A DNA stretch of 64,000 nt, taken from positions 7,784,412-7,848,411 of the forward strand of contig JBNZDD010013714.1 in assembly GCA_050575255.1 (NCBI GenBank). The letters run 5' to 3'. Position 1 is the stretch's first letter; each line of letters begins with the position of its first letter. The DNA is from Harriotta raleighana (lineage: Eukaryota). The position numbers and the translations under genes are program-made. Shown piece by piece: positions 26,979 to 59,631 of this stretch. The notes under the pieces are model-generated. The model was not told where the DNA came from, searched no databases, and was given only the letters and a program-made list of their open reading frames with translations.

Positions 26979-28032
26979 TAGATGTTATACTGATGATCAC
27001 TGTAATCACTTCAGATGTGAGCAAGAGGACTTGGCAAACTGAAGATAAGAAGGGAGCAAGGAGTATGATTCTGAAAAGAAAATCACCATTGNCGATGATC
27101 ACTTCAGATGTGAGCAAGAGGACTTGGCAAACTAAAGATAAGAAGGGAGCAAGGAGTATGATTCTGAAAAGAAAATCACCATTGAGATCATTTTATTATT
27201 CTGATTCGAACTTTAATAAACTTTCAGCCCTTCTGTGCTGGAGACATTGAGTGAAATCAAATAATTTACTTAAATATCTCCATTAGATTTGACGTTGAAG
27301 TACAAGGATTAATTGTGCAATATTTCTTAATGGATTTCTTGATTAAGAAATGCCTTTATTAAGAAATCCTAGTGGGGACTCCTTCTGGTAACTGAAACTT
27401 CTTAGTGAACATTCCTCAGAGTTCAAGGAACCTTGTTGCAAAAATTTATATTCCAAGAAGTCCACATTACAGATCTAGATTTCTCAAATAAGAAAACCAT
27501 TTAGAAATCCCACAAAATTGACCTAGTATTGTTTTTTTACTTTTGTTACAGGCTACTGTGCAAAAATGTTTTTTTTTAAATTGGTCAGTTAATCCATGAC
27601 TGTTTATACTGTTTTACATTGCCCCATGCACAATCGGTTATCGCGTTTCATCCACAAAATATAGTCAATTTATTTTACAGTATATTATTATATCTGATAT
27701 CCTAGTGGACTCAAAGAACCAATGCAGAAGCAGGGGATTCACAGTTACAGTATTGGGTTATTTAATTCAAGCGCTTTTGTTCATCCACACAGTGCAAATC
27801 ATTTCAGTGAATTGTTCTTTCATGTTGATGTGGTGGCAACAAGGGAATTGATGAGTCTCATCAATAGTTTCTAATGAATAATGCAATGTTAGAATATATC
27901 AATAAGCCCACACAGAGATGAGATAGGGACAGAGAAGGGGACAAAGCAATAAAGCGAGGAGGACTACCGTCAGATCGCTCATACAGTCTTTCAATCCTAG
28001 GTTGACCCTCTTCGATATAATAATAATATTAA

Positions 28033-28415: not shown

Positions 28416-30484
28416 CAGATAGTAATCCTAAATATTTCCAGCTGTAGCATTTGATTTGACAAAATATAAGATGAAAACAAAAAACATTTTCTACAAAATA
28501 AAGAGAAAATTAGAACTGTGTTTTAGTTGATAGACAGCAGCAACCTGGAGGCAAATAGGATCTGATATTGAAAAGTGTCCAGATATGTTCATCATAACCA
28601 AGAAGAGTGCATTGTTTCCATTGTGGGTTGGTAGCAAGGGTAGGCCCACAGATTCATTATGTTAATAGTGCACTAGAACAACATGCTTTAGATATGAAAG
28701 TACTTCCAGTATTTATTATAGGAAATATAAAGTGCCTCATTGTATGTACCAGTTCAGTGTTCTCAGAGAAATGTTGTTGCCTTTATTAATTTTCAAAAGC
28801 CTTGGTTTTTGTCTGAGCAAAAATATTTTCTTCTACACTCCACAAAACATAGTTATTAGTGTGCAAAATGTACAGAATGCTTTAAAACCAAACATTGGAA
28901 TTTATTGTAATCTCAGTCAATCTGCGTAGCCTTGATTTCTTTCACTTTATTGTATCATTTTGTAAAGTTTTTTTGTGGACTGTGGTCTAAATTCTCTTTA
29001 AGTCTGTAATACAGTAATACCATCTTATTTTGTTTCTCTTTGGATAAAATGTATTTATGGCCTTGAGCTGGCTTTGAGCACACTTTGGGGGGAAATAAGT
29101 GGAAGCAAACAAAAGCATGAGAGTAATGAGTCAGAGAAAGAAAATAAATCTAAAGTAATTTGTCAGGGTAGTACTGTATTTCAGTTGCTTTATGTGACCA
29201 AAATAGGCTGTAAAATCCTATGGGTCAAAGTTGTTGCAGTATTGAATGTTAGTGCAAAAAAAAACAAGAATCTGAATTTGAAGAAAATTCTCCATGATAA
29301 ATGGACCACTGTAAACACCACATTGCTTCTTGTTGTTGCTGCAAAATATATAGCATACCGTAATCTCAGAGCAATGTGCTATTGTGTTGCTACTTTTGCT
29401 TTAAAAGAAAAGTCCATCAATATTTTAAACCAAGAAATCCCATATATCGACTTTAGGGAACAAAGGAGCTTTAATTATTCCGCATTAACCATGTTTTCTT
29501 ACCACTGAGCCTCTGGATTCTGTGCTAGTGTAAAGTAAAATGTATAATTTGATATAAATTGAGTTTATTTGAAACTACCACTCTGAGAGGCAAAAATGGG
29601 GACTTGGCTTGTGAATGTGGGGTATTAGTCTTTGATAGTAAAGGGCGTAAAATAGTGACTAAACAAAATACATCACACAAATTATGTTTTACTGACTCTG
29701 AACTATTTATGTTAGTGAAGCAATATATCAAACTGAAAGGTACATTTCTTACAAGCAACATTACCTTACAGAAAGCTTTGTCAGAGAACTCAAGCAATTA
29801 TAGTGAAATAAATCAATGTGTTTTTCAAAGCTTATGAAATTCTGAGTATTTTAGAAAAACATTCATGGTTTCTTCCCAAACCTTACATTAGGATTCTCAC
29901 CAATACAATAAATAAAAAAGGTATCTGGATACATCAGCCATTGCGGACGATGTTATACTGTCACATTACATATTTCACCACTAAACACTATAAGTATACC
30001 AGAATAGGACATTTACATGGTCAGTGAAATTTCAGCATGCCAGAGATATACTGATTGGAGAGTACCTCATAATATTATGCAATTTACTTGAGAGACATTT
30101 TGCTTCTGTTGTTAAACTGCTTATCAAACTCAGCAACTGTTCACTCTAAAATGTTATCATTCATTCCCTCAAACTCTTTAAAATTCCATTGGTGAAGGCA
30201 ATGAGGACAGCATTAAATTCCACCGTGTCTGATATAGTACTTTGTATGTCCAGACTATGACCCTGTAGGCAATAACTGAGCAATGAGTGCTCAGGAAACC
30301 TGGCAGCTGCAGTATTTTGCCATCAAAGTGTATTAAAAAATAAAATGTGTGTCTAGCAAAATGGCAGCTGAATTACAAAATTGTATTCAAATTCTAAAAA
30401 GCTATTCATTTTCCAATATTAAACTAATGGTCGTAACAGATCAGACAGATTATTTGTTCATTTATGTTTTATTGTTATATTTTC

Positions 30485-30802
30485 AATAATAATAATAATC
30501 CTTGCATTTGATATAGTACTTTACACATCTTATCGACGTCCCAAAGTGCTTCACAGAATATACTGTAAAGTGAATTGATTGTATATTTGTGGGCGGAATG
30601 CGGCAGCCAATTGCACACAGCANTAGCCTACAAACATGGATTGAAATGACCAATTTTATTGTTGTGGTTTTTTTTGGAGGGATTATTATTAAGCAGGTGG
30701 AGTAAAGAAACTTGCCCAAGGTTTCGCCCTGATCTGCCTGGATTCGAACACAGGTCTCATGCTTGAAAGGCAAGTGCTCTAACCACTAAGCCACAGGAGC
30801 TC
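30485..30802 (-). mobile_element. SINE family A, full length
   Basis: rc head gagctcctgtggcttagtggttagagc...gttcgaatcc, Deu core, tail. Confidence 0.9.
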
Positions 30803-32320: not shown

Positions 32321-33243
32321 TTCTAAAGGCTTCAGTACAATATCACTTGACATACCTTCCATCTTCCATTTTCTTTACAGTATTGATACATCTGGTTAAA
32401 AAAATCTCCATATAGTAGACCCCAAAGATTTTAGTACAAATGGGGTCGGGAGATGAGAAATGTTATCAATGACGATAAAAAGGACCAAGTTTAAATGTTG
32501 GAGATTTGAAAATGGCAGAAACATATACTGGCTTCGATTAACTTGCAGTTCAGGGAGGTGCTATCTGGAACTTTTCTCCAGAGATTGAAATGTAGTCTGT
32601 GTTGCAGCAAATAGGATTTCAGTAGACTGGGCTTTGGTGAGCTAACTGTTTTTATTTGTCTTGTGCTTGTGTTATGTTCTTATTGCTGATGCTGCAATAA
32701 TTCAGTGTCTATGGTGGGTTGCAAGCTGATAAAGGAGGTGCTGTCAGACCAGCTATTACAATTTACAGAAAATACTTCAACCTCACACATCCTCAGTACG
32801 TTGGTGGAGCTCCTGAGAATAAAAATGGCAACAAAAAAAAACTCCTAAGGGGACAATGAGATTGGTTACACAAAGTAAATTACATACAGCAACAAAGCTG
32901 ATTTGCCTATACAGAAACGTTACCAGAAATAACAGTGGTTATATTAGAATTGCTCTTACTCTCCTGATGGCTTCACTGCCCGCCCTGTTAGAGCATACCA
33001 GAATAAGGAGAATTAGGGAAATAAGAATCAATGTATAAGAGAGAGGGAGAAGACTGATAATGTGGCCTGAATTTGATTTTAAATGCCTCGCTCTGCACAG
33101 AGAGCCAGGTTAATGCCTGTCAAATATAGGACAGGCATGTTCAATAACACTGGAATGGATATAACAGAGCATGTCTCTTGGGGTGCAGGTGGTCCCACTC
33201 CTCTATTTTGGGAAACTGATAAACCCAAGAAATCAAAGAGTAT

Positions 33244-33278
33244 GTTCTGACGAAGGGTTGTGCACCCGAAACGTTGAC
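33244..33278 (+). ncRNA. minimal type I hammerhead ribozyme motif
   Basis: CUGANGA 33247-33253, stem II 33255-58/33264-67, GAAA 33268-71, palindromic ACGU stem III, predicted cut after U33275, stem I GUU/GAC. Confidence 0.6.
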
Positions 33279-33342
33279 TCACTTTCCTTTCTCCATGGAT
33301 GCTGCCTGACTTGCTAAGTTTTCCCCAGCAACTTCTGTGGTT
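33244..33342 (+). mobile_element. ~99-nt Penelope-type element with minimal hammerhead ribozyme, 14-bp TSD
   Basis: GTT-CTGACGA-A-GGGT(tgtgc)ACCC-GAAACGT-T-GAC core. Perfect direct repeat AAATCAAAGAGTAT at 33230-33243 and 33343-33356. Confidence 0.75.
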
Positions 33343-34883
33343 AAATCAAAGAGTATAGTTGGCATTGATTGTCATGCCTGAGGATACGGGAGCTTCTACA
33401 GTGACACCAATAGTATATGAGGATGTGGCAAGGCTTGGCATTGCCAATTAGTCAACAGCATACAACATTACAGGATTACTGCTAAGCACATACAAAGTAC
33501 TGTACTTTTACTCTTATCAGGTTAACCACACAATGGGTTAGATATATTTGCGAAAAATGTGACAAAACAAAGTGCCCTCATCAACCATATAGTCCCAGGC
33601 ATCAATATAATGCAAATACGACTAAACATGCCCCGAGATCGATGATGGAGTTGAACATTGATGTTTGTTCAAATAACGGTGACAAATTGGTCAATTTCCC
33701 ACCATGTGCCTTAACAATTCCTTAATTCAGTAAAACTGCAGCATACTTCACTCTTTGAAAGGAACTAAGTTCCAGCTAAATCAATACCTTAGTGGTGCCA
33801 TCCAAATCCCTTGCCTCCCAGTATTTCAGTGATGATAGATCAAAACAAAAATCACACCAGCAGTTCGAATGCAGGCAGTAACATCATCTGACCTTATTAT
33901 GAAATAGTAACATGACAAAACCCTTTGCATGTGAAATGCCGCCTACATCAATTAGCTATCCACAGCATGTTTCTTCCCTCAAAATAAGCAAAGGTTCTAT
34001 TCTGCCCTGTTGGAATTTATAAACCACACAAGGTTGATTTAAAAAATGATCCAAACAAGCAGCCAGTAATAAGTTATGTATCTGGAAGCAAGGAAGCTTT
34101 ATTACTTGAAAGTTGTTCATTATGGTTTAGTGTTTTGAGATGTAGGAATGAAAATAGTAGTGTTTCATAACAGGTTCGATAAGATAAATATCACTCTGAA
34201 CATATTTTTAAGAAGTTACTGATTTTACTCTGGTGTCTGGTGTTAAGAGACCAACATTTCTCTTTCACAGTGATTTGATATCATTACAAGACTCACATAT
34301 TTTTTAGGTAGCTCTGAATTATATTTGTTTGATTGCATAACGTTAAAGAGTTTGTAAATATGAAAAGGAAACTAAATGAAGAAATTAAACTCCTGCATTT
34401 AATAAAATTTAATTAATGTTCGAAACATAGAGTAAGCATGAATCTTATCACACATAACAGCAAGTGTAAAAGTCTCTACAGAGTTGGCATTAATTGGATG
34501 ATCCCCACAGAGGGACTAGAGATCAGGACAACAAGACTTTAATTTCAGCAAGTGACTGACAGTTATTCCAAAAGATGTGATCTGAAGTTAATTTAGATTA
34601 ATGTTAAAGCCAATTATTTTGTGACAGTAAAATATTCACGTTTCATTTCACAAATTGTGCTTTTTTTTAAACTTCATACTAACTCCATGTCAGACTAAAC
34701 ATTTAAAATAATTAGCTCGGCATTGTACAATCTGCTTTCGTAAAAAAAGATTTCAAAACAGAACAGCTAGTTGTTGTTTGATTACTCTTTAGAGAAATTA
34801 ATTTCAGGAAGAACTTCCTTATCAATTCACACAAAAGAAACTTTCTAGTGCTTAATTATTTGGGTTTGGAAATATAATACATA

Positions 34884-40282: not shown

Positions 40283-40822
40283 TAATAATAATCCTTGCAT
40301 TTGACATAGCGCTTTTCATGTCTTCTATATGTCTCAAAGTGCTTCGTGGAATATACTGTAAAGTGAATTGACTGCATATTTGTGGGCAAAACACGGCAGC
40401 CAATTGCACATAGTAGTGTCCCACAAACAATCGTGGATTGAAATGATCAATTGTATTATTGTGTTTTTTTAGGGACAATTATTGTGGAGTAAGGAAACTT
40501 GCCCAAGGTTTCACCCTGCCTGGATTTGAACCCAGGTCTCATGCTTGCAAGATAAGTGCTTTTTACGTCTTCCAGATGTCTCAAAGCGCTTCACAGATTA
40601 TACTGTAAAGTGAATTGACTATATATGTGTGGGTGAAACGCCGCAGTCAATTGTGCACAGCTGTATTTCACAAACAGTCTTAGATTGAGTGACCTTTTTT
40701 TAAAGGGATTATTATCAGGCATGTGGAGTAAGGAAATTTACCCAAGGTTTCACCCTACCTGGAATCAATCCCAGATCTCTTGCTTGCAAGGCACGTACTG
40801 TAACCTTTGAGCTACAGGACTC
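40283..40822 (-). mobile_element. head-to-tail SINE family A dimer
   Basis: Two SINE bodies joined at ~40560 (aagtgct|ttttacgtc). A single outer head (40822) and a single outer tail (40283). Confidence 0.85.
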
Positions 40823-43459: not shown

Positions 43460-44641
43460 GATCAGCAGCATTTTTATCGAGTACCAATTGCATGGCCTTT
43501 AGAAAGGTTTTAACACATTGATCATTTTTGTTTGTGGATAACCATGAGCTGAAATTCTACCTTGTTTTTTTTAGACCTAAGCCATTTGATTAAAATTTCA
43601 GAGCACACAAAACTTGATAATTTTGAATTAATTTTGAGGCTAATTTGTTTAACTGTTTTAAGACCCACAAAAAACACCTTCTATTTCTGTAATGTTAATG
43701 ATGTATGGAATAGTTTGCATCCCCGGTATTAAAAGACCACATTTGCTGATTTAAAACTAGCACGGTTCAAGATACCTGTGGGAGAAGAATCCCTTCTCTG
43801 TACCAAATGAGTATGAAACATTTCCGAGCAACACATGAAAATAATAATAGAATTTTTAAAAAATGGAAGACATGAAAAGCGCTACATCAAATGCAAGGAT
43901 TATTATTAATAATACCAAGTTAATCAAGCGATAACAGTAATATCGAGGCCAATGCATCTAAAGTAATTGTCGCACCTCATTGAACAGATGCTTCCAAAGA
44001 TTCAGATCAGTTTGCTCTAAAAACTATCAAAACTGTATCCTGTTAAAGTTACAATTAAAAACTTTTTTCATCTATGCCAATCAGTTTGGGATAGCACTGC
44101 ACATAAGAGTTTGGCTAACATTATAAACAGCAGTGATAATATTCTGACCTCCATTAATCAGTCTGACAGGATCCAAGACTTCTCTGGCGCTTCCTTGCTT
44201 GGCAAGTTTAGTCACAACGGTTGATTGCAGACTTTAATTAGATACTTTGGCAACTAAACTGGTTCTTGCAGAGGAGAGAAAACGTGTCATGTTTTTAAGT
44301 GACTCCACCACCTGGAGCAAAGTAGAATGTAGCAAATATTCTTTTTAAGAACTGCAAAAACCTNGTGACACCACCTGGAGCAAAGTAGAATGTAGCAAAT
44401 ATTCTTTTTAAGAACTGCAAAAACCTGGCTTTCAAGTTAATACTAAACTTAATTCTACGTGATAATAAATTTGAAGGCAAAATTATCAAACGGGTTAAGA
44501 TGAGGTGAATTTTGAGGTGTTTGAGGTGAGCTGGGTTGTTGCCTTTGTTGTTCCAATTGTTTCCAAGATTCTTGACAGGACTAGATTTTATTCCAAGCTT
44601 CCACTTGGAATTTAAAAAATCAGCCTAACATTATCTTGTCA

Positions 44642-44747
44642 GAAACAAAAACAGAAATCGCTGGGAACACTCAGCAGGTCAGGCAGCATCTATGGAGAAA
44701 GGAGAACTGAGTCAATGTTTCAGGTCCACGACCCTTCATCAGAACCT
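44642..44747 (-). mobile_element. second copy of the hammerhead-bearing ~100-nt element, 14-bp TSD (1 mismatch)
   Basis: Reverse complement AGGTT-CTGATGA-A-GGGTC(gtg)GACCT-GAAACAT-T-GACTC...GATGCTGCCTGACCTGCTGAGT...CCAGC. Flanks ACATTATCTTGTCA 44628-44641 and ACATAATCTTGTCA 44748-44761. Confidence 0.75.
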
Positions 44748-44886
44748 ACATAATCTTGTCACTCGTACTAGTTGCCTCCCCTTGTGTCTTGTTTGTAAGG
44801 TATGTGTATGTGACCTCTTTATTATGCTACTGATCGGATGCAATGATCTTTGTTTGGATCTGATCGTGCTATTGATACAATATATA

Positions 44887-48166: not shown

Positions 48167-48422
48167 TAATAATAATCTTTGCATTTGATATAGTGCTTTT
48201 TCACATCTTATCGACGTCTCAAAGCGCTTCATAGAATATACTGGAAAGTGAAATTGACTTATATTTATGGGTGAAACAAAGCAGCCAATTGCGCACAGCA
48301 GTGTCCCACAAATGAACAATTTATTATTATTGTGTTTTTTGGGGGAAGGATTATTATTAGATGTGTGGAGTAAGGGAATTTGCCCAAGGTTTCACCCTGA
48401 TCTGCCTGGATTCGAACACAAG
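48167..48422 (-). mobile_element. SINE family A (partly duplicated again at 48585-48693)
   Basis: Tail, Deu core and B-box region on the reverse strand. Confidence 0.9.
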
Positions 48423-49436
48423 ATAACTACTGTATATATAATGCTTAGAATTACATTGTTGGAAGCAAATATTTTCTTCAGACTTCACATTAATATTATT
48501 TACCTGGAAAAGCTACACTTTAGATGTGAGGAACAAAGAGAATTGGTCCCTTTGAATAGTACATCCAGGACCTTGGTATAGCTNTGAACAATTTATTATT
48601 ATTGTGTTTTTTGGGGGAAGGATTATTATTAGATGTGTGGAGTAAGGGAATTTGCCCAAGGTTTCACCCTGATCTGCCTGGATTCGAACACAAGATAACT
48701 ACTGTATATATAATGCTTAGAATTACATTGTTGGAAGCAAATATTTTCTTCAGACTTCACATTAATATTATTTACCTGGAAAAGCTACACTTTAGATGTG
48801 AGGAGCAAAGAGAATTGGTCCCTTTGAATAGTACATCCAGGACCTTGGTATAGCTTTACTTCATACTATATAATTTGTTCAGTGGAACCGTGTGTATAGG
48901 TAGAAAAAATGTCAAAATAAGTCGAAAAAATGATGTGCACTTTTTTTGAAAACAATAATAGCTATGCAAGGCAAGAGTTCAAGTCATATTTTTTTTAAAC
49001 CACAGAAAGATGGTGAAGCGAATGAACGAGTCTCATTAACAAATCAGCCAGTGGCAAAGTAAGTTGTACATTGTTGTTTCTGATACATAAACAATAATTG
49101 AAAGGAAGGTGATTGGAAGCTTAATGAGACTGCCAGTAAATGGCTTGTTGCATGTTATATAAATGTACTAAAAAGGGCACTTCACAACTATTTTCACAAT
49201 ATTCAGTATGTAAAGGTCATTTGATGAACTAGATGCTTCATAAAAACAGAGTTTCAGAATGCCGTGGATAAACTATGGGGGGCGGGGGGGGGAAGAAAAT
49301 CACAAAGCTTCAAGAGGAATTTGATGCAAGCAAATTTTGAGTTTCCTTTGAAGATTATTCTCTGTTCATACATTGTCATCACTGGTGTTAAATGATTTTG
49401 ATCAGTGTGAGGAAATGGTGAGTTTTCAAAAAGTGA

Positions 49437-52186: not shown

Positions 52187-52496
52187 AATAATAATCCTTA
52201 CATTTGATAGAGCTTTTCATGACTTCAACGTCTCAAAGTATTTCACAGAATATACTAGAAAGTGAATAGACTATATATTTGTGTGTGAAATGCGGCAGTC
52301 AATTGCGAACAGCAGTGTCCCACAAAAAAGCCGTGGATTGAAATGTCCAATTTATTACAGGTTTCATTTTTGGATGGATTATTATTAGGCATGTGGAGTA
52401 AGGAAACTTGCCCAAGGTTTTCCCCTGACCTGCCTAGATTCGGACACAGGTCTCATGCTTGTAAGGCAAGTGCTCTAATCACTGAACTACAAGACT
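52187..52496 (-). mobile_element. SINE family A, full length
   Basis: rc head gtcttgtagttcagtgattagagcac, Deu core, tail. Confidence 0.9.
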
Positions 52497-56470: not shown

Positions 56471-57081
56471 TTAACCAACAATTACAATATCGTCAGAAGT
56501 GAATTCGTAAGGAGGCACCTCCAGATTAGTTGGTGCTGGGCCTTTCCTGATTCTCCCTGATGCATCATAATGAGATCCATGGCAGGGACAGTAGTAACCC
56601 CCATATTCACCAGCATTCGCTATTGGTACACAGCCCAGGTGAGTGCAGACACCAACGACAATCATCCACTGTGGATTCTTCACTCTGTCAGAATCTAATT
56701 GAGGGTCTCGCAACTCAGCTAAGTTTACTGCCTGTTCTTTCTCAACTTCCTTGGGTGAACGGTGGCGGATAAACAGGGGCTTGCCTCGCCATTTAAACGT
56801 CATGTTCTTGCCTTCTGGTATATCACCCAACTTGACTTCAATTGTGGACATGGCCAGCACATCAGCAGAGGCGCTCATACTTGAGATGAACTGGGTGACA
56901 ACATTCTTTGCAGCGTAGGCTGACACACAGAGTGTTGCTCCAGTTATTACGTAGGAGAACACCCTCCTCGTATCAATGCTGTCCTGTGATGCTTTCTGGG
57001 GGTCCATAACATCTGCCCGCCGGTAGTCAGAGAAGTCTGGAATTTTGACATCACTGTGTGCATAGCGAACACTCGAAGCAA
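56471..57081 (-). CDS. UQCRFS1: UQCRFS1 coding exon 2 (mature Rieske iron-sulfur protein), 611 nt including TAA
   Basis: Acceptor tttttttttatatacAG| at 57082/57081. The spliced frame reads ...[31 protein letters not shown]... and contains the TM segment, [13 protein letters not shown], Rieske boxes CTHLGC and CPCHGS, and GPAP. 211+611=822 nt, giving 273 aa. Confidence 0.98.
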
Positions 57082-59210: not shown

Positions 59211-59225
59211 CACAGCGCTACTCAC

Positions 59226-59436
59226 CGCTGATGCCGGCGGTGGCAGAGACGCCGCCTCGAGGGGCCCGACCGGCCAACGACTCCCTGCACAGCAGCGGCC
59301 GCTTCAGATCCAGCACCGCCTCCTGGGCCTTGGTGACCCCGTTGGCTGCCAGCGGCTTGAACTGCGACGCCACGGCATAGCTGGTGGCCGAGAGATAAGG
59401 GGCGAAGACGCCCGAACGAGCGGCGAGAGACAGCAT
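59226..59436 (-). CDS. UQCRFS1: UQCRFS1 coding exon 1 (mitochondrial presequence), 211 nt, phase 1
   Basis: ATG at 59436 encodes MLSLAARSGVFAPYLSATSYAVASQFKPL..., an Arg/Ser/Ala-rich sequence typical of the vertebrate UQCRFS1 N-terminus. Ends at the canonical donor AGCG|GTGAGT (59226/59225). Lies in a CpG island. Confidence 0.95.
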
Positions 59437-59530
59437 CCGAGAGCCGGAGCGAGGAGAACAGGCCCGACCGAGGGGCAGCTTCGCAGCGACCTTCAGGCGA
59501 GAGGACGAGCGAGACAGGCCGCGGCACTCA

Positions 59531-59631
59531 ACTGCGCAGACTCGGGAGTCAGCCGCCTGTCACTACTGCGCAGACTCGAACTCACACTCAACCAGCCACC
59601 CACCCTCTGCTTTGTCGTACTGCGCAGACTC
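59531..59631. promoter_or_regulatory. three copies of ACTGCGCAGACTC (NRF1-like sites)
   Basis: Exact 13-mer at 59531-59543, 59565-59577 and 59619-59631. The TGCGCA core resembles the NRF1 consensus YGCGCAYGCGCR. Confidence 0.6.

Follow-up and report, generated by a model that had tools for sequence, protein, structure and literature searches.

A 99-nt insertion opening with a minimal hammerhead motif in Harriotta raleighana, its empty site in a related species, and its probable Penelope-like origin

Solo hammerheads of Penelope-like elements (PLEs) have been known since 2014: most minimal hammerhead ribozyme (min-HHR) motifs of metazoans are single dispersed elements that are probably related to truncated PLEs, with ca. 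4,000 of them in coelacanth and ca. 9,000 in Xenopus, and on their own they show little or no cleavage (PMC4209133; this and the sources below are cited for their available portions). PLE insertion has been described for PAc, a Poseidon element of Anolis carolinensis, whose protein nicks AT-rich DNA and starts complementary DNA (cDNA) inside the RNA, i.e., reverse transcription begins 111-118 nt into the open reading frame (ORF), within a stem-loop located 85-92 nt beyond the hammerhead cut, and without homology to the target; uncleaved RNA is used, cleavage is not needed for insertion, the length of the product tracks the template's 5' terminus, and the ribozyme is inactive without the protein (Frangieh et al. 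2024, PMC11167929). Here we examine a 99-nt insert that opens with a minimal hammerhead motif in 64,000 nt of Harriotta raleighana DNA (assembly GCA_050575255.1, contig JBNZDD010013714.1, positions 7,784,412 to 7,848,411 of the forward strand; hereafter the window, numbered from its first letter), the insert and its flanks lying within the piece 32,321-34,883. What this locus adds to the known solo hammerheads is an empty site and a fixed 5' edge that lies away from the ribozyme cut.

Read contigs of four of eight sequencing runs containing the region (X1, X2, X4, and X5, the last from a related species whose flanks are ca. 91% identical to the window) were aligned to positions 32950-33650 at 80% likeness, which gave 2814, 3972, 4509, and 9082 aligned contigs, respectively, almost all of them falling on the insert. 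The insert is a real, retrotransposed insertion with a true 14-bp target-site duplication (TSD), and its parts are as follows:

33230..33243, + strand: left copy of the 14-bp TSD, exact and non-extendable, present as a single copy at the X5 empty site
33244..33342, + strand: insert, 99 nt, probable terminal piece of a Penelope-like element, bounded by the TSD copies, skipped in X5, and the only part with very high read depth
33343..33356, + strand: right copy of the 14-bp TSD, an exact match to the left copy

The two 14-mers are identical, can be extended on neither side and occur only these two times in the window, which also has 20 exact repeat pairs of 12-22 bp at spacings of 60-400 nt, mostly simple or interspersed repeats. 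The empty site is given by one X5 contig (3041 nt, depth 46) that spans both flanks and joins 33229 to 33343; it skips 113 letters, and 14 letters fit on either side of the joint. Differences from the window amount to 25/280 and 27/308 positions in the two flanks, plus gaps. Since the 14-mer is single at this empty site and doubled here, the repeat is a true target-site duplication, i.e., the target is single in a relative ca. 9% diverged and doubled in this genome; exact loss of the insert from the X5 relative would be a less simple account of the same pattern. Thus, an earlier reading made from the letters alone (hereafter the sequence-only reading) was right about the perfect 14-bp duplication around 33244-33342 and about a 99-nt insert opening at a hammerhead, both boundaries being confirmed by the TSD, and the empty site that it proposed to look for in related species exists in X5. 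As to other samples, one X1 contig covers 33330-33650 with one difference and includes 13 insert letters, fewer than the 31 of our bridging rule, and thus indicates the presence of the insert there only weakly.

Two structures can be placed within the insert, the first matched in sequence and the second predicted by folding:

33244..33278, + strand: minimal type I hammerhead motif, following the PLE min-HHR consensus (PMC4209133 Fig. S3) and matched by our descriptor
33293..33340, + strand: stem-loop predicted in the 3' part (-14.2 kcal/mol), its outer stem also present in the second copy (two sequences only)

The motif opens with a 3-bp helix I (33244-46/33276-78, with a U-G closing pair), followed by the catalytic core CUGACGA (33247-53), a bulged A33254, a helix II of four pairs opening with G-C (33255-58/33264-67; five pairs in the second copy), GAA (33268-70), the palindromic ACGU of 33271-74 (helix III, without a loop III), and U17 at 33275, after which the cut is predicted on this fold, as it had been in the sequence-only reading. 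All columns of the metazoan PLE min-HHR consensus are matched, including the bulge after A9, G10.1-C11.1, and the palindromic 15.2-16.2 (PMC4209133); the CUGANGA core, single bulge, helix II of at least 4 bp, GAAA, UH cut site, and helix I of ca. 3 bp are all present, in keeping with the earlier statement that this copy retains every core nucleotide. A strict descriptor built on the metazoan PLE consensus of PMC4209133 matched once in the window (this motif) vs. 0 times in 150 Markov-shuffled windows, while a relaxed one found both family copies vs. one match in the 150 shuffles; the two catalytic boxes by themselves were found seven times in the window vs. 5.64 expected, i.e., in no excess over chance. 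The proposed check with hammerhead covariance models was negative, as no Rfam hammerhead family matched the insert at gathering score or at E<=10.

Folding makes it doubtful that this copy is catalytically active. The 35-nt hammerhead region folds as one imperfect hairpin (-7.8 kcal/mol, z -0.03), the whole 99-mer folds no better than its shuffles (z -0.46), in the best monomer fold the catalytic core is base-paired to the cut site, and an active dimer (-8.5 kcal/mol vs. -24.0 for the best dimer fold) would be disfavoured as naked RNA. The retention of CpGs, which had also been claimed, holds for three of them, and two are lost relative to the second copy, reading TpG at 33259-60 and CpA at 33329-30. 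Neither strand of the insert has an A or B box of RNA polymerase III (Pol III) by their consensus patterns, nor is there a tRNA, 5S, or 7SL head, and so the assertion that this is not an ordinary short interspersed element (SINE) stands. As modelled, the 3' stem-loop is a candidate site for binding and initiation by the reverse transcriptase (RT): the two window copies end behind it, 67 nt (copy 1) and ca. 73 nt (copy 2) past the cut. The tail (33305-33342) together with its extension in the family also resembles the end of an intron by the usual consensus patterns, with a CUGAC branch-point-like motif, a pyrimidine run, and a CAG in the extension, near which many family copies seem to stop. 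Retention of introns in the 5' untranslated region is known from PLEs (PMC2377424).

The second copy lies ca. 11 kb from the first and has a degenerate TSD of 15-16 bp:

44641..44745, - strand: second copy of the family (105 nt; identity to the first copy 85% over 95 nt), beginning at the same base and having a longer, T-rich 3' end
44746..44760, - strand: 5' copy of its degenerate TSD, with one substitution and one indel relative to the other copy
44625..44640, - strand: 3' copy of its degenerate TSD, pairing with 44746..44760

Both window copies are solo, without tandem units, and they share the start base and differ in the 3' end. In helices I and II, the changes between the two full copies are CpG decay, which in copy 2 has also broken the palindrome of helix III. 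An apparently compensatory pair in the consensus fold of the two copies was rejected as covariation, as it is a double CpG decay in an inactive fold.

The ratio of peak to flank read depth (hand-computed as ca. 63,000, 68,000, 58,000, and 63,000 in X1, X2, X4, and X5; no copy number, and of use only for the order of magnitude) points to some 60,000 copies of the family in both species, which agrees with two copies in 64 kb. Given this abundance in both species, the family is older than the insertion at 33244. Its ends were read from the loose ends of the aligned contigs, for which our figures rest on the best-supported 24 of 421 rows and count contigs rather than copies; read depth within the insert tracks the divergence of copy 1 itself and is unsuited to placing truncation points. 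In all four runs the largest 5' rows stand at 33243-33245, with 142 contigs in X1, 177+41 in X2, 201+46 in X4, and 101+534+165 in X5. Because the reference insert begins at 33244, longer copies also break there, and what counts is the agreement among the loose letters, which is only 0.35-0.46; most junction contigs must thus have unrelated 5' flanks. A minority shares its upstream sequence, as one C-rich 30-mer consensus appears in X1, X2, and X4 and partly in X5 (the genome has 36% GC), and so a longer parent sequence exists; the shared motif has no match in the window at three mismatches. In a simple simulation, with one upstream sequence at 90% identity in a fraction of the contigs, the shared fraction came to ca. 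0.30 (X1, X2, X4) and ca. 0.15 (X5), between limits of 0.33-0.35 agreement and no C when none share it and 0.93 agreement when all do. This suggests that most junction contigs (ca. 70-85%) end no more than a few bases away from helix I. The rows at 33264 and 33283 are alignment breaks, the loose letters there repeating the start of the element.

As the ribozyme would cut 32 nt downstream of the 5' edge, self-cleavage does not make that edge. This bears on the view that the insert is a monomer of a non-LTR (long terminal repeat) retrozyme, i.e., that a tandem transcript is cleaved by its hammerhead and that the resulting unit RNA, or a circle formed from it, is copied into DNA and integrated. 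Cleavage would put 5' ends at 33276, and among the rows listed the nearby 33274 row holds 5 contigs vs. 142 at the edge in X1 and 12 vs. 201 in X4, and is absent from those listed for X2 and X5. Retrozyme monomers are dispersed and PLE-related (bioRxiv 10.64898/2026.07.22.740005), and a type I hammerhead with an intact core would suit them, but the motif is minimal rather than canonical (PMC7229834), the active dimer is disfavoured and the best monomer fold occludes core and cut site, and the two window copies are both solo. Tandem structures are rare among the contigs: in one X2 contig a second hammerhead immediately follows the first, which makes it a dimer found in nature, and X5 has one head-to-tail contig with a 35-letter spacer; these two are what the retrozyme account can draw on, and we judge it highly improbable.

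At the other end, a portion of the copies have loose letters that continue for 10-30 nt in a shared sequence, first a T-rich run and then further letters, which fades in X4 and X5. The 3' ends therefore vary, and the 3' consensus also differs between runs. The sequence-only reading's term unit-length thus fits the 5' edge, and fails at the 3' end, where copy 2 already reaches 105 nt and many copies extend further. The same evidence bears on a self-propagating, non-autonomous mini-element, in which one or more masters of ca. 100 nt, driven by outside promoters, would be mobilised in trans by PLE proteins. Such an element would account for the unrelated 5' flanks of some 70-85% of junction contigs and for the very high abundance in two species, the run-specific 3' consensus hints at subfamilies, the terminal repeats of an A. 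vaga PLE suffice for mobilisation in trans (PMC3846280), and non-autonomous PLE derivatives have been described (PMC8557442, bioRxiv 10.64898/2026.07.22.740005). Yet the insert has no internal Pol III boxes, a master behind an outside promoter should pass on its upstream flank whereas the only shared upstream sequence is the one C-rich stretch, and the 3' ends are not fixed. We consider this origin distinctly unlikely, and a self-standing element of fixed length, which the sequence-only reading had put first, gives way as the leading interpretation, both on account of these 3' ends and because ca. 15-30% of junction contigs continue into the shared upstream sequence.

That upstream sequence is pyrimidine-rich and ends in CAG if G33244 is included, which raises the further possibility that the 5' edge is a splice acceptor and that the inserts derive from spliced RNA; in D. 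virilis an intron does end at the 5' end of helix I (PMC4209133). Spliced templates should, however, share a first exon before the hammerhead, and most flanks are unrelated, the only shared upstream sequence would be the intron itself, and copy 1 retains the G at 33244. We give this explanation very little credence.

The insert is very likely of PLE origin. Besides the hammerhead, the family shows features of endonuclease-bearing PLEs, i.e., a retrotransposition TSD (proven by the empty site, and degenerate at copy 2), inverted copies, and partial tandems, structures of the latter two kinds being typical of PLEs (PMC8557442, PMC3846280), and the shared 3' extension may correspond to the optional 3' tail of 30-40 bp, with discrete ends, that PLEs can carry (PMC8557442). 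Among the family contigs there are six opposite-strand joints (7 contigs) and the one head-to-tail joint, few contigs in all and obtained at a low likeness threshold; two of the six inverted joints (33244/33278 and 33239/33283) sit on the symmetry axis of helix I. On these grounds the identity proposed earlier stands in part: a retro-insertion with a PLE-type hammerhead, read as a solo Penelope terminal piece, probably works as a PLE product and belongs to a PLE family, and it is the tiny independent element that becomes the less likely reading. We set aside the opposite orientation, in which the transposing RNA would be the antisense one and have an invariant 3' end and a variable 5' end, because PLE hammerheads are on the sense strand, near the 3' end (PMC11167929, PMC8557442).

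We postulate that such inserts arise by run-off, i.e., that reverse transcription starts internally, ca. 100 nt from the 5' end of the RNA, and copies to that end; as a whole we hold this mechanism, largely modelled on PAc, to be somewhat probable. The longer parent would continue upstream as an endonuclease-bearing PLE, whose terminal-repeat promoter would start transcription at or one base before G33244, so that an uncleaved RNA would begin with the hammerhead. As in PAc, the PLE protein would nick DNA, prime cDNA at the stem-loop or U-rich region, placed 65-80 nt downstream of the cut site, and copy to the RNA 5' end. The product, without the upstream promoter, would be a dead-end copy, and ribozyme cleavage would play no part in setting its ends. 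A transcript start at helix I combined with internal, 5'-proximal initiation would yield promoterless products of 100-130 nt that share one 5' end, differ at the 3' end, and have a TSD. This scheme would lead to what is seen in the family, whose very numerous members begin sharply at helix I and vary at the 3' end, and at the locus itself, an insertion into an AT-rich site with a 14-bp TSD that took place after the split from the related species or has been unsorted since.

Where the upstream consensus meets the insert, the letters agree with the initiator pattern YYANWYY, its A being the base directly before G33244. In shark genomes, similar hammerhead-tail sequences are presumably preceded by a GIY-YIG ORF and by a pyrimidine-rich stretch. 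The terminal repeats of A. vaga PLEs carry TATA and initiator-like motifs (PMC3846280), and the transcript of the D. virilis PLE starts ca. 125 nt before the hammerhead, or ca. 50 nt once spliced, i.e., 46 nt before an intron at 416-491, with the hammerhead at 496 (PMC2377424; hammerhead position PMC4209133).

Several points weigh against the proposed mechanism. The transcription start at helix I is deduced, the initiator match being a weak 7-letter pattern, and a TATA-like AT-run 30 nt upstream carries little weight, as it also occurs in a mostly random-flank row (X5, 33243). The 5' clustering itself follows from low letter agreement under a simple model that deals in contigs, not copies. A motif scan of the window found no RT or GIY-YIG ORF, and scans of sequence collections, which gave no matches or chance bacterial and fungal ones, linked no ORF to the family. 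The end region of the insert is U-rich, whereas PAc initiates in an AC-rich loop with ends on two sites, and the two inverted joints on the helix I axis would fit a fold-back of the ribozyme equally well. In those collections, the hammerhead-plus-tail pattern had no match in viral, metagenome, or prokaryote sequences, and the tail alone had none in the viral, three in the metagenome, and three in the prokaryote set; the metagenome matches were rejected (21-27 nt only, without a hammerhead, in unrelated coding DNA) and the prokaryote ones were judged to be chance from their record titles.

The main rival to run-off is that longer PLE cDNAs are truncated at the 5' end in the ordinary way, with the structured hammerhead as a hot spot, where the RT would stall or the folded-back cDNA end would anneal to the target, and no transcription start would be needed there. 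PLE copies are mostly 5'-truncated (PMC4209133, PMC8557442, bioRxiv 10.64898/2026.07.22.740005), the 35-nt region does fold as a single imperfect hairpin, two of the six opposite-strand joints lie on the helix I axis, and the bases just right of the TSD resemble the first bases of the element, a possible microhomology. An RT moving 3' to 5' would, however, meet this hairpin at 33278 and should stop there, while the best-supported 5' ends are on its far side, and the hairpin is weak by both energy and z-score. Truncation of this kind thus appears rather unlikely to us, though it deserves serious attention.

The rest of the window offers some context. The insert lies ca. 23 kb downstream of UQCRFS1 (Rieske iron-sulfur protein), found at 56474-57076 (- strand) and about 59221-59559 (- strand), whose large exon is 79-82% identical to elasmobranch proteins among the best 12 of 120 matches listed (10 of them from named elasmobranchs), with no chimaera among those 120. 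In a tree of 26 rows the window protein falls into the cartilaginous-fish clade (100/99) on a long branch, its position within the clade not being settled. CpG observed/expected is 0.33. An abundant SINE-like family with a tRNA head is present at 1504-1575, 30734-30796, 40750-40821, and 52425-52496, with ca. 20 further fragments and up to 21-fold coverage in self-comparison. Another exact 14-bp direct repeat (30230-30243 and 30509-30522, 279 bases apart) has its second copy inside a SINE-like repeat and is possibly a TSD or a repeat fragment. Near-perfect tandem duplications occur at 48313-48855, 44306-44426, and 27005-27184 (periods 272, 63, and ca. 93); at least two of them have N in or adjoining them and are possibly assembly artefacts.

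The locus is a clean case, as its empty site proves the ends of the insert, and a sharp 5' edge away from the cut bears on the role of the hammerhead in PLEs and on how these integrate. We advance tentatively, as something that may well turn out otherwise, the wider proposal that the tens of thousands of hammerhead inserts of 100-130 nt in sharks and rays are made by a PLE RT that starts inside its RNA and reads through the mRNA's 5' leader as far as the cap. If this were true, the genome would have kept, in these inserts, a record of the sites where PLE transcription and reverse transcription start. The inserts would also represent a third origin for repeats of SINE size, one that depends on neither Pol III nor a master gene, and the mechanism would account for unclassified repeats like NSRE1 (nurse shark) and for most of the solo minimal hammerheads in animals. 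Were the edge in fact a transcription start, thousands of copies per genome would map start and initiation sites of PLEs in vivo and would confirm internal initiation, which to date has been demonstrated in vitro with a single lizard element. Copies that are lineage-specific and have an empty site elsewhere could also serve as presence/absence markers for shark and ray phylogeny.

Compared with described systems, the insert shares its architecture column by column with the solo PLE min-HHRs of Cervera and De la Pena (2014, PMC4209133). Cartilaginous fishes are missing from Fig. S3 and Table S1 of that paper, and its available portions describe no boundaries, TSDs, or fixed 5' edge; the insert family also appears, by a rough estimate, to be ca. 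10 times as abundant. In the literature searched, we found no chondrichthyan PLE hammerhead family and no fixed 5' edge at a ribozyme, a weak negative, as Repbase/Dfam and most subscription papers were outside the search. Metazoan non-LTR retrozymes are likewise small, non-coding, PLE-related elements with a type I hammerhead, TSDs of more than 4 bp, and dispersed monomers (PMC7229834; bioRxiv 10.64898/2026.07.22.740005), but they are defined by tandem hammerhead units (canonical in PMC7229834) and circular RNAs, whereas the insert is solo, its hammerhead is minimal, and its ends do not fall at the cut site. Retrozymes are present in one chondrichthyan sampled (bioRxiv 10.64898/2026.07.22.740005), and the family lists of that preprint may include the insert family. 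With PAc the insert shares a hammerhead and, within ca. 100 nt downstream of it, a stem-loop at which genomic copies terminate, as well as AT-rich targets, and it differs in the U-rich 3' region, PAc starting at two sites in an AC-rich loop; genomic mini-inserts with a fixed 5' edge are not described in the available portions of the PAc paper (PMC11167929). Lastly, NSRE1, accession AF357922, nt 2-103, is a dispersed repeat of ca. 100 bp, with 17 copies in a 170-kb BAC (bacterial artificial chromosome), described in 2006 as unclassified and specific to the nurse shark, with no ribozyme or PLE link in the portions available; its probe did not hybridise to three other elasmobranchs (PMC1513397). 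By eye, the primers of its probe have in common with the insert 10 consecutive letters that cover the hammerhead's 3' half and, ca. 25 nt beyond them, GATGCT, the sequence between them being different (PMC1513397). NSRE1, compared through these primers only, is probably a sister repeat of the insert family.

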